DNA from: a virus
DNA: 64,000 nucleotides
Reading direction: 5' to 3' (one strand)
Virus record (IMG/VR): IMGVR_UViG_3300010391_001464
Coordinates: 1 to 64,000 of that record
Of the stretch, positions 4,070 through 50,719 are shown piece by piece. Position 1 is the stretch's first letter; each line of letters opens with the position of its first letter. The position numbers and the translations under genes are program-made. Below the pieces are notes generated by a model that ran no database searches, was not told the DNA's origin, and saw nothing but the letters and a program-made list of their open reading frames with translations.

Positions 4070-5466
4070 TGATAGTATTTAATTTAATTAGGCAATATTC
4101 CCAAAAAGTATCTCAGATCAAATTTCCAACAGATAAAGACCACCCTTTTTTTATTTCTTATTTAAGTGAGAATTCTACATTTGTTGAAGATTTACCTAAA
4201 TTAAAATTAAGATGGATTGATTTACATGATGTATTTATACCGTATACTAAAATTCCTTTCACTAAATATAAACCACAAGAAGATAGAAAAGGTTTTAGAG
4301 ACCTAAAATGGTTTCCACATTCAACTAATGAAAAAGTTCCATCTGGGAAGAGTATAGTATTTGATTACTCAAAATTTATAAAAGAAATTGAGAAAAAATT
4401 TAATCCAAAAACTTGGAGAATGAGAGCAGGAAATCTTTTAAAAAATATGGTAGTTAAATCTTTTTCTACAGTTCCTGACAATTATAAAAAAGTTTTATTA
4501 TATTCAATTGATACTTCAAAACCTCATAGAGATTTTATGGATAGAAAAATATTTCCCATTTTACTTCAAATAAGGGACGGAATTTTACCATATGATCATT
4601 TACTTTTATGTGTTATAAATGGTAATAGTTGTTATTATAGATTGATTATTAAAGACAGACAAGTAAATATTGGAAGAGCTAGGGCTTTATTAAGAAATAT
4701 AGCATTTGAAGACTCAGATAGTGATTCAGATACTGAAGAAGTTAAACAAGTTGCTGATATTATTTCTAAAAAAGTTGAAATTCATATTAAACCAGAAAAT
4801 AAAGAAAAAGTACATTCTATAGTAAAATTATATTTATCTAGGCAGCCAGAGGAAATAGAGAAAGTATTATCTAGTGAAGATCTTTCTGATTATCAAGCAG
4901 TACAAATAACTACTTCTGCATTACTTACATCTTTGCAAGGAAGTTCAAGAAGAGCTAAAGTTATATCAAAAAATATACCAAATGAGAAGAAAGTATCTGC
5001 TTTAAAAACAATAGATAAAAATCTAATAGATGAAATTCTTAAACCACAGAAGGCAATATCTACTTCATCCGAGATAATAGTTCAAGTTATAAATCCTTCA
5101 AAAGCTGTAGACGAAAAAACTCCAACTCATATCTTTGATAAAAGACAAATAGATTTTAAAACAAATCTTAAAAAAGATGTCGAAAATATATTTAATGTTC
5201 TTAAAGTAAAAGATATGCCTTTATTTGTTGATAAAATTGAAATATTAGACAAACCGTCGAAAAGTACTGAAATTGCAAAATCAGATGAAAGTACTATTGA
5301 AGCTAATCTAAAGGACTCGGAGGGAAAGATACATAAAGTTAAAATAGATATTCCTAAAATAAATCTAGATGGTACCTTTACAGTTAATGGTAGAAAGAAA
5401 TGTTTAGTTAACCAAATTATTTTAATACCTATAACATTTCCTAAGCTATATGAAAGTAGATTTTGA
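4069..5466 (+). CDS. rpoB: RNA polymerase beta-like subunit (set 1), N-terminal part with ~400-aa extension; apparently frameshifted into 5450-8179
   Basis: Ends with IPKINLDGTFTVNGRKKCLVNQ, the beta N-terminal GxFxINGxE/K segment. Removing one T from the T4 run at 5461-5464 fuses it in frame with the next ORF. Confidence 0.75.
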   Translation: MIVFNLIRQYSQKVSQIKFPTDKDHPFFISYLSENSTFVEDLPKLKLRWIDLHDVFIPYTKIPFTKYKPQEDRKGFRDLKWFPHSTNEKVPSGKSIVFDYSKFIKEIEKKFNPKTWRMRAGNLLKNMVVKSFSTVPDNYKKVLLYSIDTSKPHRDFMDRKIFPILLQIRDGILPYDHLLLCVINGNSCYYRLIIKDRQVNIGRARALLRNIAFEDSDSDSDTEEVKQVADIISKKVEIHIKPENKEKVHSIVKLYLSRQPEEIEKVLSSEDLSDYQAVQITTSALLTSLQGSSRRAKVISKNIPNEKKVSALKTIDKNLIDEILKPQKAISTSSEIIVQVINPSKAVDEKTPTHIFDKRQIDFKTNLKKDVENIFNVLKVKDMPLFVDKIEILDKPSKSTEIAKSDESTIEANLKDSEGKIHKVKIDIPKINLDGTFTVNGRKKCLVNQIILIPITFPKLYESRF

Positions 5467-9079: not shown

Positions 9080-9093
9080 TATATATATTAATT
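9080..9093 (+). promoter_or_regulatory. Putative phage promoter, class B (TATATATATTAATT)
   Basis: Identical 14-mer at 43583-43596; both are intergenic and head a gene block. Confidence 0.55.
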
Positions 9094-36254: not shown

Positions 36255-38957
36255 ATGCCCAAATTTTTAAATTTTCATGAATTTTGTAAAGAGTTGCCAG
36301 AAATAACAAGTGTAAAAATTATAGATAAAAAAAATTTCCATTCAGAAGGTTTATTTTCTGAGCAGATCTTTGGACCATTAAATAATTATACATGTCAATG
36401 TGGTATTTATTACGGCTCATCAAAGGATGGTTATTTATGTCCTGAATGTAATGTACAAGTTGTAAATAGTGATGAGAGGAGAAGAAGATTTGCAAAAATT
36501 ATACTTCCTATTCCAGTAGTAAATCCATTATTTTATGATATGTTAGTAGATATTGGAGATGGAGATTTAAAAGATATATTAGATGAAATTATGAAAAGTG
36601 ATGTTAGTATTATGTATAAAGATAAAGATGTTTATTATGTTACGGAACAAGGAAAACAACCGGAAGGAGTAGAAACCTGGGAACGACTTGATGCAATATA
36701 TGAAGTAGTAAGTAATATCTCAAATAAATTAGCTGAGAAAGGAATCGAAGAGTGGAAAATAGTTAATAAAAATTTAGATAATCTAATAATAGATCAGATT
36801 ATCGTGTTACCACCTGACTTACGGCCAGCAGCTAAGGGAATTGAGAGAAATAATCAAGTACTTGACCAAATTAATAGGTACTATGCTCAAATCCTTCATA
36901 AGAAGGAATCTATGAAGGATACAATTATTGATATTGAAAAAGATAAGAAACTATATTATAGTTATTATAGGCAAATTCAAAAAGATGTGTCAGAACTATA
37001 TAAACATATACTTGAAAAACTTTCTAAAAAAGAAGGACTAATTAGAGGAAATATTTTAGGGAAAAGAATTGATTTTTCAGGAAGAGCAGTTATTGTTCCT
37101 GACCCAACTCTTGACTTAGATTCATGTGTATTACCTTATCTTATGTTTTTAGAATTATTTAAACTTCAAGTATCTAAACGATTAATATATAAAGGAAAGT
37201 TTAAACTTCTCAATAACGCAATTGATTTTGTTGATAAATGTATTGAATTAAAAACTACATCATTATTTAGAATATGTGAAGAAATTGCAAAAGATGAAGT
37301 ATGTATTTTAAATAGACAACCATCTTTACATCGTTTAAGCATGATAGGTTTTAATATAAAAATATCATTAGATGAAGTAATTAAAATTCATCCATTGGTA
37401 TGTCCTGGATTTAATGCTGACTTTGACGGGGATCAAATGGCAGTATATGTTCCTATTACTGAAGTCACTAAACAAGAAGTTAAAGATAAGCTTCTAATGT
37501 CAAAGAATTTAAATAATCCATCTGACAATAGTTTGAGTACTACTCCTAGCCAAGATATTATTTTAGGTCTTTATTCTTTATCTGCAAATTTATTTCCAGA
37601 TTTACTGGAAATAGTTGAATTTAAAGGAAGAAAGATTACAGAAAGTAGAAAAATTGTAAATGAATGTTTTCCAGATGATTATCCAATAGTAGATGAAGAG
37701 TTAAAAAAATTAAATATTATAAAAATTTTGAATGATATTAAAGACAGATATCCTGAATCAGTTATAAAGGAAGTATTAGATAAAACTAAATTAGTAGGTT
37801 TTAAATATTCTACATTGTTTGGTTCAACAATGGCATTAAATGAATGTTACCTTAAAGATGCTGACAAATATAAACAAATTATTTATTCTGAACAAGCAAT
37901 ATCACAACAGTTGAATAGAGTTTCTTCTAATGAAACCAAAGACTTAATGAAAAAGAACTTTAATTATGCATATACAGTTGAATCTGGAGCTAGAGGAAGT
38001 TGGGATCAAGTTAGACAAATCATTTTAACTAGAGGATTTATATCTAACTTTAAAGGACAGATACTTCCAGTTCCAATTAAACATAGTTTAATAGATGGAT
38101 TAAATCAAGAAGAATTTTTTCTATCAACATATGGTTGTAGAAAAGGACTTCTTGATGTAGCTTTAAATACTGGAATCTCAGGTTATTTATCTAGAAAATT
38201 AATATTTACTTGTTCAAATCTTCAGTTAGATGAAAACTTAAAAGATTGTGGAACTACCGATACATTAAGTATTTTTGTAAAAGATGAAAAGAAAGCAAAA
38301 ATGTTAATCGGTAGATGGTTTGTAATTAATAATAATTTAATTTTGATTACAAAGGCTAATTACGAATCTTTTGTAGGTCAAACTTTAAATTTAAGAAGTC
38401 CAATATTATGTAAAAGCCCAAAAGTATGTACTACTTGCTATGGAGATTTATATAAATCTTTACATAGTAAATTTGTAGGAGTTATATCAGCTCAGTCTTT
38501 AGGTGAATGTAATACTCAACTCGTTCTCCGCACGTTTCACACGAGTGGAGTTGCATCTGTAAAAGATAAGATAAATAATAAAGATATGATCCAACAAGAT
38601 ATTATTGGAGATTTATCTTCAGTGTCTAAAATGCTTCATAATTTTCAAGGAAAAAATTATACAGATTTAGTTAGTAAGCTTTTTGAGGTATATAATAATA
38701 GTAGAAAAATTCATCATGTTCATTTTGAAGTATTGGTTGCACAATTGATGTGGAATAATCTCCATAAGTGGAGATTATTAGAAGATAGAGATAAAAAAGA
38801 AATACAATTTTACTCAGTTCAAACTGTGCCAGCAAAAGAAAGTTGGTTGTTAGGTTTAGCATTTAGCAACCCAAAGAAAAATATCCTTAGTGGTATTCTT
38901 TATCCTGGAAACTATACTGGAGTAATGGATAAAATTCTATGTGGAGAAAAGATATAG
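36255..38957 (+). CDS. rpoC: DNA-directed RNA polymerase beta'-like subunit (set 2)
   Basis: GLFSEQIFGP, zinc-binding CQCG...CPEC, VLPPDLRP, LGKRIDFSGRAVI, LNRQPSLHR, FNADFDGDQMAV, SGYLSRKL, TQLVLRTFHTSG. Confidence 0.97.
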   Translation: MPKFLNFHEFCKELPEITSVKIIDKKNFHSEGLFSEQIFGPLNNYTCQCGIYYGSSKDGYLCPECNVQVVNSDERRRRFAKIILPIPVVNPLFYDMLVDIGDGDLKDILDEIMKSDVSIMYKDKDVYYVTEQGKQPEGVETWERLDAIYEVVSNISNKLAEKGIEEWKIVNKNLDNLIIDQIIVLPPDLRPAAKGIERNNQVLDQINRYYAQILHKKESMKDTIIDIEKDKKLYYSYYRQIQKDVSELYKHILEKLSKKEGLIRGNILGKRIDFSGRAVIVPDPTLDLDSCVLPYLMFLELFKLQVSKRLIYKGKFKLLNNAIDFVDKCIELKTTSLFRICEEIAKDEVCILNRQPSLHRLSMIGFNIKISLDEVIKIHPLVCPGFNADFDGDQMAVYVPITEVTKQEVKDKLLMSKNLNNPSDNSLSTTPSQDIILGLYSLSANLFPDLLEIVEFKGRKITESRKIVNECFPDDYPIVDEELKKLNIIKILNDIKDRYPESVIKEVLDKTKLVGFKYSTLFGSTMALNECYLKDADKYKQIIYSEQAISQQLNRVSSNETKDLMKKNFNYAYTVESGARGSWDQVRQIILTRGFISNFKGQILPVPIKHSLIDGLNQEEFFLSTYGCRKGLLDVALNTGISGYLSRKLIFTCSNLQLDENLKDCGTTDTLSIFVKDEKKAKMLIGRWFVINNNLILITKANYESFVGQTLNLRSPILCKSPKVCTTCYGDLYKSLHSKFVGVISAQSLGECNTQLVLRTFHTSGVASVKDKINNKDMIQQDIIGDLSSVSKMLHNFQGKNYTDLVSKLFEVYNNSRKIHHVHFEVLVAQLMWNNLHKWRLLEDRDKKEIQFYSVQTVPAKESWLLGLAFSNPKKNILSGILYPGNYTGVMDKILCGEKI

Positions 38958-38958
38958 G

Positions 38959-39972
38959 ATGTACTTTTGCGATTATGGTTGTGGTAATGAAGCAATAATT
39001 ACGTTCAAAAATGGAAAAAAGTGTTGCCAAGAAAAATATTCAAAATGTCCCGGGTTACGAAAAAAATATAGTAACCCGGGATCTAAAAATCCAAGATTTG
39101 GTAAGCATTGGTCTGAGGAATGGAAAAAAAATCATTCTGAAAAATTAGTAGGAAGAAAGATTAAAAGAACTTTTATTCCTATAAAATTAGAAGAAGACAA
39201 AAATATCTTATGTGATTTTTGTAATAAAAGACTAGCTAAGTATAAATTAAATAATGGAAAAAATTGTTGTGAAGAACATCAAAGTAAATGTCCAGAAATA
39301 AGAGTTAAAATAGGAAAAAAAATAAAAGGAAAAATGGTTGGTATAAATCATCCATTTTTTGGAAAAACTCACACAGATGAAGTTAAACAATTACAATCTA
39401 TTAGAGTAAAAGGAAATAAATATAATTTAAATACATTAAATAAGATAAATAAAAAGTATCCATTTTTTTCAGAGATTGAAAATACAAAAGAGATAAATGG
39501 AAGTTTAATAGTAAAATGTAAACATTGTAAAAAATGGTTTGAACCTACAAGATCTCAGTTATATGAAAGAATTTATGCTATAAAAAATAAAGGGACTATT
39601 CATGATACAGGAAATTCATATTTTTACTGTTCTTCTGAATGTAAACTAGAGTGTGTATATTATTACAGAAAAAAAGATCCTGACATTCTAAGAGAATATG
39701 AAAGATATAAACAAAATGTATTAAAATATACTAATAGAAATATAAAATTTAACTTTGATAAAATCGAAAATTCAAGTAAAAAAATAAATGGAGATAACTT
39801 AGAACTGGATCATAAATTTTCAATATATTCAGGTTTTATAAATAATATTGATCCAAAAATAATTGGTCATTGGAAAAATTTAAAATATATAAAAAAAGTA
39901 GAAAATAGAAAGAAAAGAGAATCTTGTTCTATAACTATTGAAGAAGTTCTTTCATATTCACAGGAGGTTTAA
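38959..39972 (+). CDS. Free-standing HNH-type homing endonuclease with NUMOD3 and Cys-rich repeats
   Basis: Repeats CDYGCG...NGKKCC...SKCP and CDFCN...NGKNCC...SKCP; FGKHWSEE and FGKTHTDE; C-terminal ELDHKFSI...GHWKNL...ENRKK. Sits between beta' and beta. Confidence 0.75.
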   Translation: MYFCDYGCGNEAIITFKNGKKCCQEKYSKCPGLRKKYSNPGSKNPRFGKHWSEEWKKNHSEKLVGRKIKRTFIPIKLEEDKNILCDFCNKRLAKYKLNNGKNCCEEHQSKCPEIRVKIGKKIKGKMVGINHPFFGKTHTDEVKQLQSIRVKGNKYNLNTLNKINKKYPFFSEIENTKEINGSLIVKCKHCKKWFEPTRSQLYERIYAIKNKGTIHDTGNSYFYCSSECKLECVYYYRKKDPDILREYERYKQNVLKYTNRNIKFNFDKIENSSKKINGDNLELDHKFSIYSGFINNIDPKIIGHWKNLKYIKKVENRKKRESCSITIEEVLSYSQEV

Positions 39973-39976
39973 AATA

Positions 39977-42900
39977 TTGAATATTATTAATCCTAATTTT
40001 AAAGTTAATGAAGATAAAAATATTTTTAATATTAGACAAAAGGAATTTGATAACTTAGAACCTTTAATAAGACAAACTATTTCTCCAGTAGAGGAACTTG
40101 GTTTTACTGTTAAAGAATTTGGAATCAGAGAAAGTAGATATACTGCAGGAGATCTAAGTAAAACTTTAAAACAAAATATAGTTATTAAACTTGAGAAAAA
40201 TAGTACTGATATAGATATAACTTTAGCAATGCCAACATTGGTTGATAAAAATTATATAGTTATAGGTGGAAGAAAAAAAATTCCTCAATTTCAATTATTT
40301 GATGTTCCAGTTATAACAAGAGGAAAAAGTACTAAAATAAGAACGAATGTTGCTACAATTATAGTAGAAGAGGAAAAAAATCCACCATTTATTAGCGTAA
40401 CTGTATTAAGTAAAAAAGTTCCACTTTCTCTTATTATTTTTGCTAAATATTCTAAACAAGAAATTATTGATAGATTTAAATTAGTGGACCTTGATGAGGA
40501 GTCATTAAAAAGAGATAATTATTATGAAAAATTATTATATGATTTAAAGAAAACATATATTGAAGCAATAAATTCTGAAATGACTCAAGATGATTTTATT
40601 AAAGCTCTCGGTGAGTACTACTCAAAATATAATGCTAAAGTAAAAGGTGAAGATGTCATATATGCTTTAGATATTATGTTAAAAGTAGATATTATGACCG
40701 CTAGATTTTTTAAATCTAAAAATATCATAGATGAAATAATTGAAGTAATAAAATTAGGTGAGATTGATGATCTAGATTATAGAAATAAAAGAATTAGATG
40801 TTTTGAGTATATAGTATTAGCAAAAGTTTCAAAAATTATATTCGACCTTTGTACATCAAATAGATCGCTAAAACAACCAAAATTTAATGTAAATTCTACT
40901 CAAATTTTAACTGAATGTAACGTGTCTGATATAGTTCAGTTTGATTTTTCTATTAATCCTATAGAGGAATTAACTAAACTATCTAGAGTAAGTTTAGTAG
41001 GCCCAGGTGGTTTTGATAAACAAAATATTCCGGAGCATCTAAGGGATGTAGCTCCTACAATGTTTGGAAGAATATGTCCAGTTGATACTCCAGATAGAGA
41101 AAATTGTGGAGTTCAGCATAATTTATTACCAAATGTTGATTTAGACGAAAATCTTAAATTTACAGATAAAATCCTAGATAAACAACCAATATCTATTCCA
41201 GTAGCAATGGTTCCATTCCTAGAACATGATGATCAAACCAGACTTCAAATGTCTTCTTCACAAATGAGACAGGCAATTATGTTAAAGGATTTTGACCAAG
41301 CATTAGTACAATCTGGAATAGAAGGAATATATACTGATCAAACTCAGTTTTTAAAACGTGCTAAAAAAGATGGAGAAATATTATATGTAGATAATAAATA
41401 TATAATAGTTGTTTATGATGATAAAGAAGTTGAAATATTTGATATATCATATAGAAAAATTTATGTAGGAAATATGGACATATTCAAAGTCTATATAAAA
41501 CAAGGAGACAAAGTAAAGCGAGGTGATATATTAGCTGAAAGTAATTATTGCCATGATGGAAGGATACAATTTGGAAAGAATTTATTAACAGGTGTAATGA
41601 TTCATTATGGTTATAATTATGAAGACGGTATAGTAATATCAGATAGATTAGTAAAGGATGGAATTCTTACTTCTCCTCATTTTGTAGATTTATCATTTAA
41701 TATCCCAACTAATAAGGTTTTATTAACTCTTGATTCTAAGAAGTATAAACCCTTGCCAGAAATAGGCGAAGAGATAAAAAATGGTAATCCCTACGCAATA
41801 ATAAAAGAAATGCCAACAGATAACATGGTTGATTATTATACTGTGTTCGAAGAATCAAATCCATTATTAACTAAAAATGACACGATTGTAACTGAAGCAA
41901 ACATATTTATTAATGAATGGAATGAGAATATTCCAGAATTTAATCATTGGGTTAAAGATGTAATTAAAAAGCAAAATAGAGAAGAAGAACAATTTCAAGG
42001 AATTCTTAATGAATATTTACCGAAAGACTCAGCTACTAAATTTATAAAAGATAATGATTTAGATAAATTTTCATCAGTTGGTAAATATAAAATAAAGAAT
42101 GAAAAAATAAATGGTATTCATGTAGAAATGTATGGAATATTCTTTAGGCCTATAAAGGTCGGAGATAAAATTGGAAATAGACATGGTAATAAAGGTATAA
42201 TTTCAAATATAGTACCACATGATAAAATGCCAAAGTTAGAGGATGGTAGACATCTTGATATTTGTATAAATCCACTTGGTATTATATCTAGAATGAATAT
42301 TGGTCAATTATTTGAATTACATTTAACAATGTCTATTAATGATTTAAAGAAAAATCTTTTAGTAATGTTGAACAGTAGTTCAAATACTAAACAGATTGAT
42401 ATGAAAAAATATTTAATAGAATATATTAAGATTTTAGATAATACTGTTGGTAATTGGTATTCTTGTCAGTTCATATCTCAAATTCCAAAAGTTATAGATG
42501 AAAACTTTATAAATAATTTATTTATAGTTCAACCACCGTTTGAATCAACTCCAATACAAAAGATTGAAGAGGCATTAAAATTTACAGGTACTAATTTTAC
42601 TTATAATTTACATGATCCTATTTCTAATCATAATTTCTTAAATAAAATAGCAGTAGGTTATATGTATTTCTTCAGAATGGTACATATAGCTGAAAACAGA
42701 CTAGCGGCTAGAGGTATTGCATCTTACGCTAGAAGAACTCTTCAACCATTAGCAGGAAGAAAAAACCGTGGTGGACAAAGATGTGGAGAAATGGAAACTG
42801 CATGTTTAATTGCGCATGATGCCCCACATAATTTATATGAATTTCAGACTACTAAATCTGACTGTATAGATTTAAAAAATAAATATATTCGAGAACAAAT

Positions 42901-43006
42901 AGAAACAGATTTAGTTAAAGAAGAAAAAGAGATTGATTCTGTATCAGAGTCAGTTAAATTACTGAATGCATACCTCACTGTAATAGGTGTAGATCGTAAA
43001 AACTAA
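39977..43006 (+). CDS. rpoB: DNA-directed RNA polymerase beta-like subunit (set 2)
   Basis: GRICPVDTPDRENCG, PFLEHDDQTRLQMSSSQMRQA, GYNYEDGIVIS, GDKIGNRHGNKG, NPLGIISRMNIGQ, GGQRCGEME; TTG start after AGGAGG at 39962. Confidence 0.96.
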   Translation: MNIINPNFKVNEDKNIFNIRQKEFDNLEPLIRQTISPVEELGFTVKEFGIRESRYTAGDLSKTLKQNIVIKLEKNSTDIDITLAMPTLVDKNYIVIGGRKKIPQFQLFDVPVITRGKSTKIRTNVATIIVEEEKNPPFISVTVLSKKVPLSLIIFAKYSKQEIIDRFKLVDLDEESLKRDNYYEKLLYDLKKTYIEAINSEMTQDDFIKALGEYYSKYNAKVKGEDVIYALDIMLKVDIMTARFFKSKNIIDEIIEVIKLGEIDDLDYRNKRIRCFEYIVLAKVSKIIFDLCTSNRSLKQPKFNVNSTQILTECNVSDIVQFDFSINPIEELTKLSRVSLVGPGGFDKQNIPEHLRDVAPTMFGRICPVDTPDRENCGVQHNLLPNVDLDENLKFTDKILDKQPISIPVAMVPFLEHDDQTRLQMSSSQMRQAIMLKDFDQALVQSGIEGIYTDQTQFLKRAKKDGEILYVDNKYIIVVYDDKEVEIFDISYRKIYVGNMDIFKVYIKQGDKVKRGDILAESNYCHDGRIQFGKNLLTGVMIHYGYNYEDGIVISDRLVKDGILTSPHFVDLSFNIPTNKVLLTLDSKKYKPLPEIGEEIKNGNPYAIIKEMPTDNMVDYYTVFEESNPLLTKNDTIVTEANIFINEWNENIPEFNHWVKDVIKKQNREEEQFQGILNEYLPKDSATKFIKDNDLDKFSSVGKYKIKNEKINGIHVEMYGIFFRPIKVGDKIGNRHGNKGIISNIVPHDKMPKLEDGRHLDICINPLGIISRMNIGQLFELHLTMSINDLKKNLLVMLNSSSNTKQIDMKKYLIEYIKILDNTVGNWYSCQFISQIPKVIDENFINNLFIVQPPFESTPIQKIEEALKFTGTNFTYNLHDPISNHNFLNKIAVGYMYFFRMVHIAENRLAARGIASYARRTLQPLAGRKNRGGQRCGEMETACLIAHDAPHNLYEFQTTKSDCIDLKNKYIREQIETDLVKEEKEIDSVSESVKLLNAYLTVIGVDRKN

Positions 43007-43015
43007 CTAAAAGAA

Positions 43016-43035
43016 GGGATATATTTATATATCCC
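43016..43035. promoter_or_regulatory. 20-bp intergenic palindrome GGGATATAT-TT-ATATATCCC
   Basis: Counterpart of 12007-12026 with a compensatory arm change. Confidence 0.5.
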
Positions 43036-43050
43036 ATAAGGGAGAAACAA

Positions 43051-43347
43051 ATGACTACTGTAACAATCGTAACATTAACTATCGAACAAGTAAAAGCTTA
43101 TTTTGAAGGAAAGGGTCTAAATGTTGAAGATCCTGGAACCACTAATCTAACTTATAACAAGATGTTAGTTATAGAAAAAGATGCTGAAGCAACATATGGC
43201 AAAGAATTTTCAAAGTTCGTACGTAGTATCTGGGACAAAACCACAAAAGAGTCAGCAACAGGAAAGCGTAAATTTTGGAATTACTTTCCAAAGTACAAGT
43301 CATGGAATGATTTGACAACTGCCTATACTGCCTCTATAAAGAAGTAA
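43051..43347 (+). CDS. Hypothetical protein closing the RNAP set 2 operon
   Basis: 98 aa, RBS AAGGGAG. Confidence 0.7.
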   Translation: MTTVTIVTLTIEQVKAYFEGKGLNVEDPGTTNLTYNKMLVIEKDAEATYGKEFSKFVRSIWDKTTKESATGKRKFWNYFPKYKSWNDLTTAYTASIKK

Positions 43348-43489
43348 GCTTAGATAAAAGTGGAGTTGGTTAACCCTGCCATATAATAGGGAGTGGTAAA
43401 CACTTTTTCTAAACTACAGTTGGTGGAAACTTTAAAAGCCATATAGGATTTTTTAAATTGGTAGGGACCATGGTTGGAGGGGACTCTAT

Positions 43490-43519
43490 AAAATCTATTC
43501 ATTAGAATAGATTTTTTTT
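43490..43519 (+). terminator. Intrinsic terminator
   Basis: AAAATCTATTC-ATTA-GAATAGATTTT running into a T8 tract. Confidence 0.7.
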
Positions 43520-43582
43520 AGTCAAAAAAAGTTTTAAAAAAATATCTAGTACACGTTTTTAATTTTAATTGAAACAAATTCC

Positions 43583-43596
43583 TATATATATTAATT
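43583..43596 (+). promoter_or_regulatory. Putative class B promoter (TATATATATTAATT)
   Basis: Identical to 9080-9093; follows a terminator and precedes RBS AGGAGG. Confidence 0.55.
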
Positions 43597-43615
43597 TCTA
43601 AGGAGGAAGTTTATT

Positions 43616-43648
43616 ATGACCAAACACTAGCTTATTCGTCCGCCGTAA
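43616..43648 (+). CDS. Putative leader peptide MTKH-(TAG)-LIRPP-TAA
   Basis: RBS AGGAGG at 43601-43606; codons ATG ACC AAA CAC TAG CTT ATT CGT CCG CCG TAA. Confidence 0.55.
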
Positions 43649-43701
43649 AGTAATCTCTTTTATGTAGTATTATTAATTAAAAAACTAAAAAGGAGATTAC
43701 T
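43649..43701 (+). promoter_or_regulatory. RBS-sequestering hairpin for gene 43705
   Basis: AGTAATCTCTTTT (43649-43661) pairs with AAAGGAGATTACT (43689-43701): 13 bp with one G-U, covering AGGAG. Confidence 0.65.
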
Positions 43702-43704
43702 AAA

Positions 43705-44118
43705 ATGAATACGATTCAAAACACACCAAAAGAACTATTCAAATCAAAAGAACAATATCTACAGTTCATTCAAGCATGGAAAAAAGCATATAAAGAAAAT
43801 AAACAATCTTTAACTTTAAAGCAACATATGTTGTACGCAATGTTCAGAAATAAAGATTGGAGAAAATGTTGTACTCCATGTACTAATAAAAATAAAATTA
43901 ATAATGGTCAAAAACCAAATCAAACCACATTTACTGCATTTTTTGAATTAAGAAGAAATTATAGAAGTTTATGTGTTTTTGGTGAAAATGTTACGAATGA
44001 AATGTACGATAATTTAATTTCAAAATATCTTCCTGACCCAAAAGAGTTTAATTTAGGCGATTCAATTCCAAATTCCCCATATAAGGTTATAAATGAAACT
44101 GTTTGTTCTGGTTCGTAA
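43705..44118 (+). CDS. Hypothetical protein upstream of Pth2
   Basis: 137 aa, overlaps the Pth2-like gene. Confidence 0.7.
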   Translation: MNTIQNTPKELFKSKEQYLQFIQAWKKAYKENKQSLTLKQHMLYAMFRNKDWRKCCTPCTNKNKINNGQKPNQTTFTAFFELRRNYRSLCVFGENVTNEMYDNLISKYLPDPKEFNLGDSIPNSPYKVINETVCSGS

Positions 44119-44389
44119 GGACCTTAGTAAAAATCAACAAGCAGTTCAAGCTGGACATGTAGTAGCTCAATATCTATTACATGTCCAGAATCATTCATGG
44201 ACTAACGGAACATTAATCTATCTCGGAGTTGATAATAAAGAAGAGCTAGAGATATGGGGAGATAAATTAGACATGCAAGGATTAAACTGGGTTGGATTTA
44301 AAGAACCTGATTTGAATAATGAAATGACTGCATTAAGTATTGCTTCAGATGAAAATCCTTTCAAAAGATTAAAACTAATGGAATTATAA
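44093..44389 (+). CDS. Peptidyl-tRNA hydrolase type 2 (Pth2)-like protein
   Basis: KLFVLVRKDLS..QQAVQAGH, L.V.NKEEL, FKEPDL.NEMTALSI. Confidence 0.8.
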   Translation: MKLFVLVRKDLSKNQQAVQAGHVVAQYLLHVQNHSWTNGTLIYLGVDNKEELEIWGDKLDMQGLNWVGFKEPDLNNEMTALSIASDENPFKRLKLMEL

Positions 44390-44487
44390 ACATGGGATTG
44401 ATGTAATAACCAAGACAGTACGAAGAGGATAGACATATAACACACCATCATTCTCTTAACGACAATCGGGTAAATCAGTCCCATGTT
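44389..44487 (+). ncRNA. Candidate ~100-nt structured RNA
   Basis: 14-bp closing stem AACATGGGATTGAT/ATCAGTCCCATGTT and inner stem AAGAGGAT/ATTCTCTT, each with one G-U pair. Confidence 0.45.
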
Positions 44488-44502
44488 ATTAAAAAAGTAA
44501 AC

Positions 44503-44574
44503 ACCTCATTAGCTCAGCGGTAGAGCGATGGTCCCTAAAACCAAATGTCACGGGTTCAAATCCTGTATGAGGTA
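44503..44574 (+). tRNA. tRNA with CUA anticodon (putative amber suppressor); atypical C33, no encoded CCA
   Basis: Acceptor ACCTCAT/ATGAGGT, D-arm GCTC/GAGC, anticodon arm TGGT-CCCTAAA-ACCA, T-arm ACGGG-TTCAAAT-CCTGT. Confidence 0.7.
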
Positions 44575-44608
44575 TTTAATATTAACCACTAACCAATAAG
44601 GACAAAAC

Positions 44609-45355
44609 ATGAAGAGGATTTTCGGAACTATCATCTTATTAGTTTTAGTAGCATCTAGTGCTTTCGCATATCGTCCCTTTTACACAGAAGATGCTGAGAT
44701 TGTAGGTGATAAAGTATTTCAAAATGAATTCAGTATCGATCAAATAGAATGGAAGTCAGAAGACACAGACACAATTATTACTGACATTGTTTATTACGGA
44801 ATAAATAAGAATATTCATGTTGCTGCTGGCATCCCTTATTCCAAACATAAGATCTATAAAGGAGACTCATTCAAAGGATATGGAGATTTTTTCCTTGTCG
44901 GAAAATATATTGTTATAAGAGATAAGAATGATATGGCAAGGATTGCTATCAAAGCTACCGGAAAATGGAATAATGGTAGTTATGATAAATATGTTGGTTT
45001 TGGAGATAAGGAATATGCAGGTATTCTTTGTTTTACTCAACCAATATCTGAAAAGATACTTGTCCATGCTCAAAGTGGATATACAGTCGTAACTGACAGA
45101 AAAAATCCCGACTATAAGAATTATTGGTTATATGCTGTCGGTACTGACCTTACCATAACAAAGAAAGGTCATTTAATTGCAGAATTAATCGCCAATAAAA
45201 ATTTAATCTCAACTCTTCAACAGCAGAGGTTCATAAATGTTGGAGGATATTATATTATTAATAATTACTGGAATTTTGACTTAACTTATCGTAATGGATT
45301 AACTGATACAGCTCAAGATCATGGTTTTGGTGTTGGCCTTGTATTTCATTATTAA
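44609..45355 (+). CDS. Outer-membrane beta-barrel protein (putative transporter)
   Basis: Sec signal peptide ending SSAFA, then YRPFYTEDA, alternating amphipathic strands, C-terminal GFGVGLVFHY beta-signal. Confidence 0.7.
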   Translation: MKRIFGTIILLVLVASSAFAYRPFYTEDAEIVGDKVFQNEFSIDQIEWKSEDTDTIITDIVYYGINKNIHVAAGIPYSKHKIYKGDSFKGYGDFFLVGKYIVIRDKNDMARIAIKATGKWNNGSYDKYVGFGDKEYAGILCFTQPISEKILVHAQSGYTVVTDRKNPDYKNYWLYAVGTDLTITKKGHLIAELIANKNLISTLQQQRFINVGGYYIINNYWNFDLTYRNGLTDTAQDHGFGVGLVFHY

Positions 45356-45370
45356 AAAATTTGAGGAAAT

Positions 45371-45744
45371 ATGAAACCTATCAAAAATATAACTAAATGT
45401 GGAGCAATATGTATGGATAAGACCAAATAATAAGATTACCAAGAGGACTCCCTGTTTTATATATAGTTGCTTGGCCATTCGATTTTTTATATACTATATA
45501 TAAGAAAGAATTTAAAAGATATGGGATCAGTTATACAGAAGATGACACTAAGTTTTATATTAAAGGATTTGTTTCTGGAGATACTCATGAGAAAGGACTT
45601 AGTATTGTAGCACTCGACAATGAGAAATGCTGTCTTTTGTATTATCGAGATGAAAAAGCTGAAATAATACGAAAAACTGCAAGGCTCGGATGGTACAGAA
45701 GAAATGAAATTATGGATGCTGGTATTGCAAATTGTCCCTACTAA
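45371..45744 (+). CDS. Hypothetical protein missed by the ORF track (frameshift at ~45420)
   Basis: ATG after GAGG gives MKPIKNITKCGAICMDK; one extra A continues DQIIRLPRGLPVLYIVAWPF...AGIANCPY-TAA. Confidence 0.45.
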
Positions 45745-45765
45745 ATTATTAAGATAGGAGTAAAT

Positions 45766-46386
45766 ATGTCTACGAGTACACCTACTACACCAGAAGTAAA
45801 AAAGAAAGGGATCTTCAATAGGGCCCTTGATATTTTAGTTCCGCCAATTGAAGAAAAACCTTCAGTACAACCTCAAACACAGAGTGTTGTATCTGAGGTA
45901 AAAAGTATAAAATCTCCCAAAATTGACCAGGATATGTACGCATCTATCATGGAAGCATTGAAGGGAAGAGGGAGAGTTTTTCATGAATTTATGGGGAAGT
46001 CAGAGGAAATGAAAACCTTCGTTCCTGACGAGCCGGCGAGAATAAAAGCAACATCTATTGCGATGTCAGTTTCTAAGGAAGCTCTTTCATCTGCCATTAA
46101 TGAGATCAGAACTGGTCTTACTGTTGAGAAAAATGGGTTTAGTATTGAAATTGAAAAAGCTTTAAAAGATAATTCACTCATTACAAACAATATCAACAGC
46201 ATAGAGAAACAAATATCAGATCTTCAAGAAAAACTTGTTAGTCTTACAGAAAAGAAAACAAGTATGGCAACAGAACTTCAGGAGAAAATTCAAAAAGTTG
46301 AATCAATAAAAGAAATTTTTGAAGCAACTCTTGCAGCAATTACATCTGAGATCGATGCAATGGAATCAAAAATAAACTTCATATAA
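45766..46386 (+). CDS. Coiled-coil protein, first gene of the ABC/OmpA cassette
   Basis: 206 aa, heptad-rich C-terminal half, RBS AGGAG. Confidence 0.7.
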   Translation: MSTSTPTTPEVKKKGIFNRALDILVPPIEEKPSVQPQTQSVVSEVKSIKSPKIDQDMYASIMEALKGRGRVFHEFMGKSEEMKTFVPDEPARIKATSIAMSVSKEALSSAINEIRTGLTVEKNGFSIEIEKALKDNSLITNNINSIEKQISDLQEKLVSLTEKKTSMATELQEKIQKVESIKEIFEATLAAITSEIDAMESKINFI

Positions 46387-46396
46387 GGGGGCAACC

Positions 46397-47416
46397 ATGG
46401 ATATAGGTGATAAATCAAAATCATTTTGGGAACGTCCGGAGGGAACAACTGGAATGATAACATTAGCACTTCTAGGAATAGGCGGTGCTATTCTGTTAAG
46501 TACTGTTCTTCCCTTCATCATATCTCTTTTACAGAATACTATATATGCAGCTTTCCTTTTTACGATCCTTGCAGCTATTGTATTTCTGGTAACAAATAAG
46601 AAGATAAGAACTATAGTATCTTATATGTTCAAATCAATCATGAGGTCAATGACAAATGTTTTTATTACAATTGACCCTATCGGAATATTAAAGAATTATA
46701 TTTCCGATCTTGAAAGTAGTCTTGTAGACATGGATGAACAGAATGCAATAGTGAAAGGACAAATAAGAGCTCTAGACATAGAAATAAATAATAATGAGTC
46801 TAAGAGACAAAAGTCCCTAAATATCGCAAAGGTTGCAAATGAACAGGGACAAAAACTTGCTGTTACTCTTGAAGGAAGAAAGGCCGGAAGACTTAAAGAA
46901 ACAAATTTAACATATCAAGGGCTCAGAACCAAGTTTGAGCTCTTATATCGTACATTAATAAAAATGTACGAAAGATCTGACTTTCTTCTACAAGATATGA
47001 AGTCAGAAGTAGAAGTAAAAGAAAAAGAATATAATATAGTTAAAGCATCCTATTCTGCCTATAGGTCGGCAGTAAAGATAGTCAATGGTGATAAGGATGC
47101 AAGAGAACTTTTCGAACAGACCATGGAATATTTGGCTGAAGACTATGGAAAGAAGCTCGGAGAAATTGAACACTTTATGGAAACCAGTCAAAAATTTGTA
47201 GCTTCAGTTGATATTCAAAATGGAATATATGAAGCAGATGCTCTGAAGAATCTGGAAACATGGGAAAAAGACATGGATAATATTCTTCTTCCGGGCCCAG
47301 AAAAAAGAGAACTGATCGAAATGTCAAACGATATCAGTCATCCCCTTGTTTTTGAAAAAGAAAAAGTACCAGTTGCTGCAAGAAAGAAATCTGGAAATAA
47401 ATATCTGGATGTTTAA
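46397..47416 (+). CDS. Membrane-anchored coiled-coil protein (PspA-like architecture)
   Basis: Two N-terminal TM helices, then DPIGILKNYISDL and a long coiled coil. Confidence 0.65.
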   Translation: MDIGDKSKSFWERPEGTTGMITLALLGIGGAILLSTVLPFIISLLQNTIYAAFLFTILAAIVFLVTNKKIRTIVSYMFKSIMRSMTNVFITIDPIGILKNYISDLESSLVDMDEQNAIVKGQIRALDIEINNNESKRQKSLNIAKVANEQGQKLAVTLEGRKAGRLKETNLTYQGLRTKFELLYRTLIKMYERSDFLLQDMKSEVEVKEKEYNIVKASYSAYRSAVKIVNGDKDARELFEQTMEYLAEDYGKKLGEIEHFMETSQKFVASVDIQNGIYEADALKNLETWEKDMDNILLPGPEKRELIEMSNDISHPLVFEKEKVPVAARKKSGNKYLDV

Positions 47417-47444
47417 AAATCAATCGGAAAAGGAGAACATCTAC

Positions 47445-48986
47445 ATGCAAGGAAGACGTATGGGTCCAGCACTAAAAGGAATAATTATTTTCGCAGTTGC
47501 AGCAGCACTTTTCTTCGGATTCGTAAAGTACAAACATATGATCATACCCGAAGGAAGACAAACAAAATCAATTCTTTCTGATGACACCAAAAAGGCGGTC
47601 AAGGACGGGACCAAGGTTTACAGTATATGTGTTGTTACTTGGCCCGGATATGCAGGAGCCCAGTTATTTAACAATGGATTCTCTGCAAACAAGGATTCTG
47701 AGTATTACAAAAAGTATGGGATCATGGTTGATTTCAAGATTATAGATGACCTTAAACCCAGTCGGGATGCTTTCATTGATGGTAAATGTGATCTTCTATG
47801 GATGACATTTGACTCAATGTCCCCAGAAGCAGATTCCTTAGCTAAAGTTGGGGCAGAAGCTGTATGGGGGGCTGATAAGAGCAGAGGTGGAGATGTTGTT
47901 GTTGTTACACATGACATCAAAACTATAAATGATCTGGCCGGTCAGCCAGTAGCTTTTGCCCAAGCATCACCATCAAACTCATATCTTTTGATTCTTTTGA
48001 AAGCGGCTGGAAAGGAATGGAGTTTTATAAAACCAGTTGCTGTCGACTCGGCTATCACTGCAGCAAAATATTTCCAAGATGGGAAAGTAAAGGCTGCAAT
48101 CGTATGGTCTCCAGACGATGAAACATGTGTAAGTAAGGTTCCGGGTGCAAGAAAATTTGCATCTACAAAGACCCATACAGATGTGATAAGCGATGGATTT
48201 TGGGCCAAGAAGGAAAATGTTGAAGCCAACTTCAATGACTTCGTCAATATCTATCGTGGATGGATGATTGGAAATGCTAGAATAAATTCTTCTTCTGAGC
48301 AAAAGATTAAAGCTGCTAAGATTTTATCTTCTGGATTAAATATATCAGAAGGAGATGCAATGAATGCCTTGGATAAGGTGAGGCTTCTAACTCATGGTGA
48401 TAATATAAATCTATTTGGAATGAATTCCTCGTTTACAGGTATAACTGCAGACGACCTTTATTCCAATACTGCAAGGATTTATGAAGCCATTGGTTATGCC
48501 TCAAATTCTCCTTCATGGCGAACTGTAAGTACTAATAAGATCATTGCGGCTGCTAGTGACCTTACGTCAGAACCAGGTCAGAATGCAGAAGGTCAAATGA
48601 AATTTACCGCTGCATCTCCAAGTCTCCTAAATGAACCGGTTATCGCAAGTCAAGCTGTAAGTATTACCTTCAACACAGGTTCATCTGAAATTGATGACAA
48701 TGGAAAAGTTATCCTTCAGATAGCAGTTGGTGAAACTCTCCGGAAACTATCTTGATCAAGGGTAAAAATTGAAGGACATACTGATAACATCGGAGATCCA
48801 GCAAGCAACAGACGTCTATCAAAAAGAAGGGCAGAGTCCGTTGTTGGATATCTCGTATCTAAATATAACTTCGATCGAAACAGATTTATTGTTGATGGGA
48901 AGGGACAAGAACATCCCATTATGACAAATGAAACAGAAGAAGGTCGAAGAACAAACAGAAGAACTGAAATTGCAATTTTGAATTAA
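47445..48986 (+). CDS. ABC substrate-binding protein (NMT1/SsuA-like) fused to an OmpA-like domain; in-frame TGA at 48753-48755
   Basis: VVTWPGYAG, DKSRGGD, INDLAG, AAIVWSPD; ITFNTGSSEI, then past the TGA VKIEGHTDNIGDPASNRRLSKRRAESV...NRRTEI-TAA. Confidence 0.8.
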
Positions 48987-49110
48987 ACTTCAAGTGGAGA
49001 TGTATTATTAAATAATATTTGTTCGATAGTGTAAATCCTAGATTGCTTGTTGCAATAGGTATATCGATAAATCTGATAATACATCTCCACAATTTCTTTA
49101 AAGGAGAACT

Positions 49111-49914
49111 ATGAATTATTCTTCTCTGTTTGAATTGAGAGGATTTGTACAAGAACGAGATAAAAAAATTTTAAGCATTATTGGAACGATGGGTGTTATA
49201 TTTATATGGCAATTAATTGTAACAATATTTAATATAAATGAGGCAACATTACCTTCACCGATTAAAGTAATGTACTCATTTAAGGAGTTGCATTTTGAAG
49301 ATGCATTGATAAGAAATGCATTATATTCATTAAAATTGAACCTTCTTGGTATGACATATGCAGTTTTATTTGCATTACCCTTAGGGTTTTTAATTGGACT
49401 ATTTCCAATATTTAAACATCTTACTGAAAAACAAATAGCAGTGTTTAGATATTTACCATTGACATTACTTATAGGTGTTTTTATACATGCTTTTGGATTT
49501 TATGATATGATGAAGATGAGTTTTTTAGCAGTTGGTATTTTCGTTTATCTTCTACCTACTGTTGTACTTCGAGTAAGTGAAGTAGATGAAGTATATGTAC
49601 AAACTGTTAAAACTCTAGGTGCGTCAAAATGGCAAACGATAAAGACTATTTTTGTCCCAGGAGTCTTATCAAAAACCTTTGATGACATAATAGTCTTAGC
49701 ACCAATATCCTGGACATATATTATCATTGCTGAAATGATGAATAATACAGGTGGTTTAGGAGCTCTAGCATATCTTGCTGGACGACAATCAAGGGCAGAT
49801 AAAGCATTTGCAATCCTTGTAACTGTCTTTATAATAGGAATGATTCTAGATAAAGGATTTTCCTATCTAGATAAAATTTTCTTTAAATTCAAATATGTAA
49901 AGAAGGGGGATTGA
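49111..49914 (+). CDS. ABC transporter permease (TauC/SsuC-like)
   Basis: Multiple TM helices, LPSP, EAA-like loop YVQTVKTLGASKWQ, IIAEM...GLG. Confidence 0.88.
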   Translation: MNYSSLFELRGFVQERDKKILSIIGTMGVIFIWQLIVTIFNINEATLPSPIKVMYSFKELHFEDALIRNALYSLKLNLLGMTYAVLFALPLGFLIGLFPIFKHLTEKQIAVFRYLPLTLLIGVFIHAFGFYDMMKMSFLAVGIFVYLLPTVVLRVSEVDEVYVQTVKTLGASKWQTIKTIFVPGVLSKTFDDIIVLAPISWTYIIIAEMMNNTGGLGALAYLAGRQSRADKAFAILVTVFIIGMILDKGFSYLDKIFFKFKYVKKGD

Positions 49915-49918
49915 TAAA

Positions 49919-50719
49919 ATGAGTGTAGAATTTAAAAATACATCCCTTCCAGATATTATTGAGTTGAGAAATATAAATCAGTCATATGGTGACAAAGTAA
50001 TTATAAAAGATTTTAATTTATTAGTTGAAGATAAACCAAATATGGGGCAATTTGAAGTAATTCTAGGCGAATCTGGATGTGGAAAGTCTACTATTTTAAG
50101 ATATATCGCAGGACTACAAAAACCTACTTCAGGTGAAGTTTTTATTCATGCAAAACCAAGAACTAATGAACCGATAAGTATGGTATTCCAAAGATACTCT
50201 TCAATTCCGTGGTTATCAGTCCTTCAAAATGTAATACTTCCCTTAGATATTAGAAATGAGGGAGATAAAAAGGAAAGAGAACAAAAAGCAAGAGAAATGA
50301 TAAAAACGGTTGATCTAGAAGGGCATGAAGATAAATATGCAGTTTATCCTCTCCTTTCTGGTGGACAACTTCAGAGAGTAGCTATTGCTAGAAGTTTGAT
50401 TTCCAATCCTGAAATTTTATTAATGGATGAGCCTTTTGGGGCTCTTGATAATAATACAAGAAATAAGATGCAGGTAATGTTAGCAAAATTATGGGAGAAG
50501 TACCAATCAACTATAATCTTTGTTACCCATGATATACGCGAAGCAGTATTTTTGGCAGATAATATCTACATAATGAAGTCAAATCCCGCATATATTGAAA
50601 AACTAATTCATATTGATTTACCTTTAGTAAGAGATAGATATACTAAGAATGAAAAGAAGTTCTTAGATCTCGTAGATTATGTTGAGAATGCTCTACTAAA
50701 TATCAATGTGAAAAAATAA
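49919..50719 (+). CDS. ABC transporter ATP-binding protein (TauB/SsuB-like)
   Basis: GESGCGKST, LSGGQLQRVAIAR, LLMDEPFGALD, FVTHD. Confidence 0.95.
   Translation: MSVEFKNTSLPDIIELRNINQSYGDKVIIKDFNLLVEDKPNMGQFEVILGESGCGKSTILRYIAGLQKPTSGEVFIHAKPRTNEPISMVFQRYSSIPWLSVLQNVILPLDIRNEGDKKEREQKAREMIKTVDLEGHEDKYAVYPLLSGGQLQRVAIARSLISNPEILLMDEPFGALDNNTRNKMQVMLAKLWEKYQSTIIFVTHDIREAVFLADNIYIMKSNPAYIEKLIHIDLPLVRDRYTKNEKKFLDLVDYVENALLNINVKK

Follow-up and report, generated by a model that had tools for sequence, protein, structure and literature searches.

The leader of a small operon in an AT-rich jumbo phage genome probably acts as a translational switch that reports whether the stop codon UAG is read as sense. 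This leader lies in the IMG/VR virus record IMGVR_UViG_3300010391_001464, positions 1 to 64,000 of which are hereafter called the window. It consists of a Shine-Dalgarno (SD) sequence and a short open reading frame (ORF) that is interrupted by an in-frame TAG (the gate codon), continues to Pro-Pro and a TAA, and is followed by an RNA arm that pairs with the SD sequence of the next gene. Downstream are two protein genes, namely ORF 43705 and a gene whose product has the fold of peptidyl-tRNA hydrolase 2 (Pth2), then a structured RNA and a transfer RNA (tRNA) whose anticodon, CUA, reads UAG. About 60 other phage loci share the gated design, and in such loci the identity of the gate codon changes with the anticodon of the suppressor tRNA nearby. 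The original prediction had proposed a switch of this kind from the window, and the comparative analysis described below supports that interpretation at the level of sequence.

Architecture of the leader

All elements of the module are on the plus strand, and every one listed in the original prediction was found where it had been placed. The leader SD, AGGAGG (43601-43606), stands 9 nucleotides (nt) before the leader ATG, and the pre-gate ORF, ATG ACC AAA CAC, runs into the gate TAG (43616-43630, with the ATG at 43616-43618 and the TAG, which is codon 5, at 43628-43630). Past the gate, the frame reads CTT ATT CGT CCG CCG TAA (43631-43648, with the TAA at 43646-43648), i.e., Leu-Ile-Arg-Pro-Pro-stop, the proposed pause site. 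The stretch CGT CCG CCG had been said to stand out from its surroundings, which is confirmed by codon rarity: CGT makes up 4.4% of the Arg codons and CCG 6.9% of the Pro codons in the phage. The description of this motif as R-x-P-P-like holds only in part. An Arg is indeed followed by Pro-Pro, but it directly abuts them with no spacer residue, so that the motif in the window is I-R-P-P-stop.

The 5′ arm of the hairpin, AGTAATCTCTTTT (43649-43661), begins directly after the leader TAA and serves as an anti-SD arm. It pairs with the 3′ arm (43689-43701), which holds the SD of ORF 43705, AAGGAG (43690-43695). The claimed pairing of 13 bp, one of them a G·U pair, was recovered as both the minimum free energy structure and the centroid structure. 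The folding z-score is -2.5 for the 130-nt leader region and -3.5 for the stretch from the Arg codon (43637) to the start of ORF 43705. Counted from the first base of the second Pro codon, the arm begins 6 nt downstream, and the gate codon lies 21 nt upstream of the arm. The hairpin was also considered as an intrinsic terminator, which was rejected because no U-run is present 3′ of the stem, and no terminator is predicted on the plus strand anywhere from the leader to ORF 43705. The probable source run was also assembled separately in Logan (k-mer depth 115), with an identical sequence over 43400-44700, and the same TAG is found in relatives. The TAG is thus not an assembly slip.

Recurrence of the gated leader in other phages

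Related loci (designated L001 onwards) were collected through the Pth2-like gene by a scan of IMG/VR that gave 6 and then 63 loci, and 70 loci were analysed. The 1.5 kb upstream of each Pth2-like gene was searched for an ATG, at most 8 sense codons, a gate stop and at most 22 codons with an in-frame Pro-Pro and no further stop. With TAG as the gate, this pattern was found in 37 of the 70 loci, as compared with 2 and 3 of the 70 for the control gates TAA and TGA, respectively. A tRNA(CUA) lies within 2.5 kb of the Pth2-like gene in about 45 of these loci. The distance from the Pro-Pro to the start of the middle ORF, which has about 100 codons and abuts the Pth2-like gene, is mostly 55-88 nt (65 nt in the window). 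Essentially every leader has a UAG at codon 2-9, often two, and the pre-gate ORF comprises 2 codons in 11 of 23 related loci and 4 in the window. The post-gate peptides end either in RAPP, RGPP or RSPP, or in x-P-P and an immediate stop (RPP, KPP, HPP and others). The exact RAPP, RGPP or RSPP occurs in many related loci (e.g., L001, L004, L007, L011, L013, L015 and L018), and the x-P-P-stop kind comprises the window, with LIRPP-TAA, and L003, L010, L022 and L025. The Pro-Pro has no immediate stop in 10 of 23 related leaders, where translation continues through the arm. Apart from the shared layout, the leader sequences of the homologous loci are unrelated.

The sequestering hairpin was then assessed in 24 non-redundant leaders, each folded from a point shortly ahead of the Pro-Pro as far as the following start codon, with 117 other gene starts from the same loci as a control. 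Pairing of at least 8 nt of the SD/start region with an arm whose start lies -6 to +6 nt from the second Pro codon was seen in 23 of the 24 leaders, versus 32 of the 117 control gene starts (27%; Fisher test, 2e-10). The leaders also fold more stably, with a median z-score of -3.5 (21 of 24 below -2) versus -0.27 for the controls (Mann-Whitney test, 1e-11). The stems vary widely in sequence between loci, showing that the pairing rather than the sequence is conserved. Homologous loci thus keep an SD-led upstream ORF with an internal TAG, an in-frame Pro-Pro and a stem over the next SD, as the original prediction would have it. In the related leaders, the last gate codon is always at least 15 nt away from the arm (median 19 nt). 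A ribosome with the gate in its A site would therefore halt short of the arm, and a ribosome at the Pro-Pro would sit on it. The geometry proposed for the window, in which a ribosome stopping at TAG leaves the hairpin intact and one at RPP-TAA covers the arm, fits in the relatives as well.

A second, independent sample of 26 loci was retrieved through a profile of ORF 43705, and 20 of these carry a tRNA(CUA). The closest relatives, L070 and L071, show 56% protein identity to ORF 43705, and L071 is syntenic with the window. Both have the leader MKH-TAG-LIRPP-TAA (ATG AAA CAC TAG), and the changes within the shared peptide are synonymous only. In L071, CTT is replaced by CTA and CGT by CGC, so that LIRPP is still encoded, while the flanking non-coding DNA has diverged, suggesting that the frame after the TAG behaves as coding sequence and is conserved as a peptide. 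Other leaders in this sample read ML-TAG-VIRPP-TAA (L085), MKH-TAG-TRNKSP-TAA (L072), MT-TAG-..IRGP-TAA (L091 and L093) and, in a longer form, ML-TAG-...ERGPP (L074 and L075). In all six, the arm begins at or just past the motif.

The closest relatives also carry MENNEEH-TAG-ATG in frame before the Pth2-like gene (L070 574-930, L071 2410-2799 and L072 2252-2578), which is either a second amber gate or a termination-reinitiation site and is absent from the window. The Pth2-like gene of the window is nearer to the other leader class, with 56-57% identity to L007-L012, than to that of its closest leader relatives, which indicates that the module is mosaic. In L003, an in-frame TAG is present at about position 3190, in the middle of the conserved domain of the Pth2-like gene; its leader has two TAG gates, and no tRNA was found within the 4.4 kb retrieved.

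Matching of the gate codon and the anticodon

A different architecture occurs in loci that have the tRNA directly 5′ of the Pth2-like gene and no middle ORF. Here, the Pth2-like ORF itself opens with Met, 1-5 codons and an in-frame stop. In 26 of 73 non-redundant loci, the Pth2-like ORF has an early in-frame stop that no further start codon follows, the stop being TAG in 25 of them and TAA in one. The single TAA case is L084, where the neighbouring tRNA has the anticodon UUA. This locus (1578-2572) is an ochre module throughout, with the tRNA(UUA), the leader ML-TAA-ASNKSPPFSP-TGA and a Pth2-like ORF starting MSEG-TAA. Likewise, L066 combines a tRNA(UCA) with MES-TGA in its Pth2-like ORF. Among the loci examined, none was seen in which the gate and the anticodon disagree. 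For the neighbouring tRNA as the input of the switch, this co-variation is the best evidence, and the existence of both the leader and the in-ORF-stop architectures argues that suppression-dependent production of the Pth2-like protein is the selected property.

The suppressor tRNA and the structured RNA

The tRNA with the CUA anticodon noticed in the original prediction (44503-44574) is found by ARAGORN and scores 63 bits with the Rfam tRNA model. It forms a cloverleaf whose anticodon is complementary to a stop codon, as in a nonsense suppressor, with a short variable loop, discriminator A, no encoded CCA and an A-A mismatch at the 27-43 pair. Its anticodon loop, CCCUAAA, departs from the canonical loop in having C33 in place of the near-universal U33. 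Among 61 distinct related suppressor tRNAs, position 33 is U in 57 and C in 4.

The structured RNA of about 100 nt (44389-44487), likewise seen at the outset, has a folding energy of -30.7 kcal/mol and a z-score of -5.2. It lies between the Pth2-fold gene and the tRNA and ends 15 nt before the tRNA 5′ end; in most related loci, the gap between these two genes is just 4-12 nt. An Rfam search of 42900-45000 at a permissive E-value gave the tRNA as the sole match and none for the structured RNA, and blastn and nhmmer found no homologue of it in the related loci retrieved or elsewhere in the contig. One may speculate that it protects the mRNA 3′ end after RNase P excises the tRNA.

The gated proteins

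The first gated gene, ORF 43705 (43705-44118), encodes a protein of 137 amino acids with the motif LYAxLRGKDWRKxFTPxTNxNKLxNG, and its predicted structure is all-helical with a mean confidence (pLDDT) of 90.5. It matches no Pfam family, a Foldseek search against the PDB returned nothing below E = 5, and a wide VIA-align search gave a best Z of 3.5, so that no known fold is recognised, although a new fold is not thereby proven. A pattern scan of IMG/VR with the single protein found no relative; a profile search later reached relatives, 196 of them in a representative library of 1.8 billion proteins.

The second gated gene (44093-44389, 98 amino acids) overlaps the 3′ end of ORF 43705 by 26 nt in a different frame, from which we infer that its translation is probably coupled to that of ORF 43705. 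The assignment of its product to Pth2 was upheld as to the fold and the family profile; its Pfam score, however, falls short. The Pfam PTH2 model (PF01981) gives 17.5 bits (E 0.005), below the gathering cut-off of 23, while a profile of 27 family members matches solved Pth2 chains in the PDB at E 6e-6. In addition, the AlphaFold2 model (pLDDT 93) retrieves Pth2-family structures in all of the top 13 Foldseek rows, including 2zv3, 3erj, 1q7s, 1wn2, 1xty and 1rlk, with TM-scores of 0.67-0.83. The modelled 98-residue protein thus has the Pth2 fold. The motifs VRKDL, QAGHA and EPDxNNE are conserved in the Pth2-like family, and we take them to resemble the motifs of Pth2 enzymes. The occurrence of PTH2 in jumbo phages was noted by Iyer and colleagues, who proposed a role in ribosome rescue and did not connect it with suppressor tRNAs (PMC7824862).

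Most related loci have a different middle protein of about 100 amino acids with the motif RHxHIAYCELRGR. This family and the LYAxLRGKDW family of ORF 43705 show only a weak match over 15 columns (hhalign probability 12%). Both middle families, however, occur fused to a Pth2-like domain in a single ORF (L030 2165-2791 and L061 2132-2803; hidden Markov model (HMM) E-values 3e-15 and 2e-5), the fusion in L061 joining a domain of the ORF 43705 family to the Pth2-like domain. BLASTP of ORF 43705 against the N-terminal domains of L005 and L061 gave nothing, and the HMM made the link to L061. Since each middle family is found fused to a Pth2-like domain in some phages, the middle protein and the Pth2-like protein very probably act together. 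In L001, a GGQ-motif protein of 110 amino acids (1178-1510) is encoded 1.2 kb upstream of the leader; it has the release-factor catalytic domain only, is ArfB-like by eye and fits the theme of ribosome rescue.

Transcription signals, genomic context and genetic code

Upstream of the leader, a terminator-like hairpin (43490-43519) with an 11-bp A/U-rich stem, the loop AUUA and a following U-run (z-score -2.7) closes a block of genes for the beta subunit of RNA polymerase. The 13-mer TATATATATTAAT (43583-43595), previously listed as a class B motif, is promoter-like and lies 5 nt 5′ of the leader SD. It has 5 exact copies in the 90-kb contig against 0.19 expected, at 9080 and 43583 in the window and at contig positions 65682 and 88197 (plus strand) and 71764 (minus strand). 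Because all five are intergenic and oriented towards the downstream gene, this motif probably represents a promoter class for one of the two RNA polymerases of the phage.

The window is the first 64 kb of a linear record of 90,144 bp from a sediment metagenome, with a CheckV completeness of 29% and a G+C content of 26%, and nearly all of its genes are on the plus strand. It encodes two sets of homologues of multisubunit RNA-polymerase beta/beta′, a topoisomerase II, an SbcC-like protein and a helicase. Based on this gene content and the completeness estimate, the record is part of an AT-rich jumbo phage genome of roughly 300 kb. The polymerase genes form two unsplit beta′/beta-like pairs (window 1046-8179 and 36255-43006), matching what is expected for the virion and non-virion polymerases of some jumbo phages. 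Directly 3′ of the tRNA, a G+C-richer island (window 44609-50000; 33-36% versus 26%) codes for an outer-membrane-channel-like protein (Pfam Phenol_MetA_deg), coiled-coil proteins and a phosphonate/NMT1-type substrate-binding-like protein, and it looks like acquired cargo. A blastn search of GenBank phages with 43300-44700 gave no match.

The standard genetic code fits the 90-kb record, in which readthrough of TAG lengthens coding hardly at all. UAG terminates 19 of about 100 ORFs, and no ORF requires UAG readthrough. Conserved genes cut by an in-frame TAG and a better coding density with TAG as sense, the marks of genetic code 15, were not found in the available 29% of the genome. Across the whole contig, the nearest in-frame non-TAG stop past the end of an ORF lies at a median of 3 codons for TAG-ended ORFs, versus 8 for TAA-ended and 7 for TGA-ended ORFs (3 versus 8 for TAG-ended versus all other ORFs; one-sided Mann-Whitney test, p = 0.03). 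These nearer back-up stops may be a weak hint of tolerance of, or adaptation to, UAG readthrough in the phage. No gene with an RF-1 domain was found in the 90-kb record. The minus-strand genes at 79-88 kb are all terminated by TAA (10 of 10). The ORFs 65321-65677 and 65678-66472 were considered as a single gene with an in-frame TAG, which was rejected in view of a promoter-like motif and a new start right after the TAG.

Proposed mechanism and alternative explanations

According to the proposed mechanism, transcription from the promoter-like motif would give an mRNA with the SD-led leader as its first ORF. In the off state, release by RF1 at the UAG (codon 5) would leave the leading edge of the ribosome about 7-9 nt short of the hairpin, which would remain closed, with the SD of ORF 43705 buried. 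In the on state, the tRNA(CUA) of the operon itself would decode the UAG, and the ribosome would proceed through Leu-Ile-Arg-Pro-Pro to the UAA. Slow termination at Pro-Pro-stop and the rare Arg and Pro codons would prolong its dwell there, so that the paused ribosome would hide about 9-12 nt of the 13-nt anti-SD arm. ORF 43705 would then be translated from the freed SD, and the overlapping Pth2-fold gene would follow by coupling. Low RF1 activity, which the original prediction names beside a suppressor tRNA, would be another possible input in vivo. The pause is favoured by the conserved peptide LIRPP, the rare codons CGT CCG CCG and the published effects of RxPP and C-terminal Pro. The step from readthrough to SD exposure could be an arrest or slow termination at R-P-P-UAA, or it could be mere passage and termination beside the arm.

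Several observations weigh against this mechanism or narrow it. The R-P-P-stop motif is not the characterised R-A/G-P-P, the Arg being one residue nearer to the C-terminus, and the nascent chain is just 10 residues long. The hairpin is A/U-rich, at about -15 kcal/mol, and could breathe unaided. C33 is rare among the suppressor tRNAs (4 of 61), so the efficiency of the suppressor is not assured. L056, which has a tRNA(UUA), shows no recognisable gate, and about 20 distant Pth2-like loci have neither the tRNA nor the leader, showing that the Pth2-like enzyme is not always gated. Finally, with only 29% of the genome in hand, UAG might serve as a sense codon for the whole late phase of the phage, in which case the "sensor" would be a simple timing device.

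The alternative closest to the proposed mechanism keeps the readthrough and dispenses with a true arrest: a ribosome that passes the UAG would melt the hairpin and end at the UAA, after which the same or another ribosome initiates at ORF 43705, with the Pro-Pro and the rare codons merely fine-tuning the dwell time or being incidental. The 10 of 23 leaders in which translation runs on through the arm speak for it, as do the leaders with a single Pro, namely L072 and L086 (S-P-stop) and L091 and L093 (R-G-P-stop), which show that the double Pro is not universal, unlike the gate and the hairpin. However, an in-frame Pro-Pro, often with an Arg 2-3 residues before it, is far commoner than the choice of frame predicts. 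In the window, moreover, the Pro-Pro is encoded outside the anti-SD arm by rare codons, so that the needs of base pairing do not explain it, and LIRPP is kept through synonymous changes. Coupling without arrest is therefore rather unlikely, although it deserves serious consideration. A different proposal turns on the late use of code 15, with UAG as an ordinary sense codon and the leader as a plain arrest-peptide upstream ORF that senses, e.g., the supply of EF-P or Pro-tRNA. Recoded phages typically carry suppressor tRNAs (Borges et al., preprint 10.1101/2021.08.26.457843; PMC13037316), and both the incompleteness of the genome and the nearer back-up stops of TAG-ended ORFs are in keeping with it. 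We regard it as improbable nonetheless, as UAG ends 19 ORFs in the 90 kb and none there needs its readthrough, and a UAG at codon 2-9 of essentially every leader is unexpected for a rare sense codon placed by chance.

A sensor of peptidyl-tRNA hydrolase activity, of the lambda bar minigene type, would use the leader in another way, the 4-codon ORF shedding a short peptidyl-tRNA and sensing its build-up or tRNA starvation. Minigenes are known to provoke peptidyl-tRNA drop-off, and the very short pre-gate ORFs (2 codons in almost half of the related loci), the strong SD ahead of them and the Pth2-fold gene behind them are all suggestive of such a function. This explanation, however, accounts neither for the conserved in-frame peptide after the stop nor for the preference for TAG (37 loci versus 2-3 for the other stops), neither for the switch of the stop to TAA or TGA along with the tRNA anticodon nor for the stop inside the own frame of many Pth2-like ORFs. 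In addition, a ribosome held at codons 1-5 would not reach the arm. A minigene sensor is thus highly improbable. A last alternative is that the ORF and the hairpin arose by chance in AT-rich DNA between genes, or that the TAG stems from faulty assembly. At 26% G+C, short ORFs and A/U hairpins are indeed frequent, and the z-score of the leader region (-2.5) is modest by itself. Against this stand the excess of TAG over the control gates (37 of 70 versus 2 and 3), the hairpin in 23 of 24 leaders versus 32 of 117 controls, the identical peptide of L070 and L071 and the agreement of the depth-115 assembly, by which chance and error are refuted as far as sequence analysis reaches.

Returning to the UAG-gated switch, its purpose may be considered at several levels. 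With low confidence, we suggest that the two gated proteins deal with what suppression leaves behind, such as peptidyl-tRNA or stalled ribosomes, or that they exert feedback on the suppressor tRNA. Another possibility is a checkpoint for a switch of code in the unseen 70% of the genome. More broadly, the module might be a closed-loop governor of genetic-code readthrough, through which a virus gauges and adjusts how a stop codon is read; we offer this tentatively and consider it doubtful. The Pth2-fold enzyme and its partner, once switched on by the suppressor tRNA, would in turn feed back on the circuit: they would either free the short peptidyl-tRNA(Pro) from the ribosome stalled on the leader, or deacylate or remove the products of the suppressor tRNA. 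The outcome would be a fixed level of readthrough or a checkpoint that licenses a later stage of infection.

Relation to known systems

Ribosomes are known to stall at R-x-P-P and at Pro-Pro, and according to the literature a minimal RxPP is enough (PMC10951233, PMC12992588). The mechanism of RAPP/RGPP arrest has been described (PMC10951233), and arrests of this type are not relieved by EF-P (PMC12992588). The known peptides of this class (ApdA, ApdP and ApcA, and SecM with RAG-P) are located upstream of sec/yidC genes. Like the phage leader, they are short regulatory ORFs with a terminal Arg...Pro-Pro whose stalled ribosome is thought to unmask the next SD. In the phage leader, by contrast, the motif is reachable solely via stop-codon readthrough, the peptide has about 10 residues with no secretion signal, N-terminal regulator module or pulling-force release, and the output is a Pth2-fold enzyme and a partner of no known family rather than the export machinery. 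In the window, the Arg is not two residues before the P-site Pro, as in the RAPP/RGPP core, and neither the regulator module nor a sec/yidC gene is present. Without the spacer residue and the signal or regulator module, and with different target genes, the leader is not a member of the RAPP family, and any pause at its R-P-P-stop would occur at termination rather than at peptide-bond formation.

Termination-arrest peptides such as TnaC and the Pro-stop peptides are similar in that a C-terminal Pro in the P site and a stop in the A site slow the release factor and control downstream genes, and C-terminal poly-Pro reduces termination efficiency, as stated in section 5.6 of PMC6412442. TnaC differs in responding to free tryptophan with a 24-residue peptide and in acting through Rho access, whereas no ligand is implied for the phage leader. 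An engineered amber-gated device is also close in logic: Liu, Qi, Yanofsky and Arkin (2011; outlined in section 6 of PMC6412442) put a UAG into a leader peptide, so that downstream expression needs a tRNA(CUA) for translation beyond it. That device, as outlined there, is synthetic, tna-based and dependent on Rho-dependent transcription termination, while the phage element is natural and would act on SD accessibility.

The leader also shares the features of ermC/cat leader attenuation, in which a ribosome paused at a defined codon of an SD-led leader opens a hairpin that hides the SD of a gene on the same transcript. In the window, the leader ORF has its own SD, is predicted to be on the same transcript as the regulated gene and is followed by an SD-sequestering hairpin; a pause-site footprint over the 5′ arm is indicated by geometry alone. 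The inducer would be the decoding of a stop codon by a tRNA of the same operon, not an antibiotic bound in the exit tunnel. The closest system in logic is prfB, the gene for RF2, since both gauge termination at one early in-frame stop. In the autoregulation of prfB, ribosomes shift by +1 at an in-frame UGA inside the gene itself, by which RF2 senses its own level. The phage module would instead rely on readthrough by a cognate suppressor tRNA, either in a separate leader or, in 26 loci, within the ORF of the enzyme, and the regulated genes do not encode release factors. The lambda bar minigenes resemble the pre-gate ORF in having an SD, an AUG, 1-3 sense codons and a stop (in the window, 4 codons precede the TAG, the ATG included), and they share a thematic tie to peptidyl-tRNA hydrolase; however, they have no conserved post-stop frame, SD-hiding hairpin or link to a suppressor tRNA. 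A full-text literature search, which covered few subscription journals, turned up neither a natural leader gated by a stop codon nor a Pth2/suppressor-tRNA module.

Significance

The usual explanation for phage suppressor tRNAs is that they serve recoded late genes, and, to our knowledge, those of standard-code phages have had no clear target so far. With the module described here, a suppressor tRNA would gain a defined natural client, namely a leader, or the ORF of the enzyme itself in many relatives, whose full translation depends on suppression of the matching stop codon. The proposed switch is a directly testable natural sensor of stop-codon readthrough, and its design would be a compact, ready-made part for synthetic biology that resembles amber-gated leaders engineered independently. 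It would also tie the biology of arrest peptides (RxPP and Pro-Pro-stop) to the flexibility of the genetic code, and it points to the Pth2-fold enzyme and its partner of no known fold as unstudied players that may take part in the management of suppression by phages.

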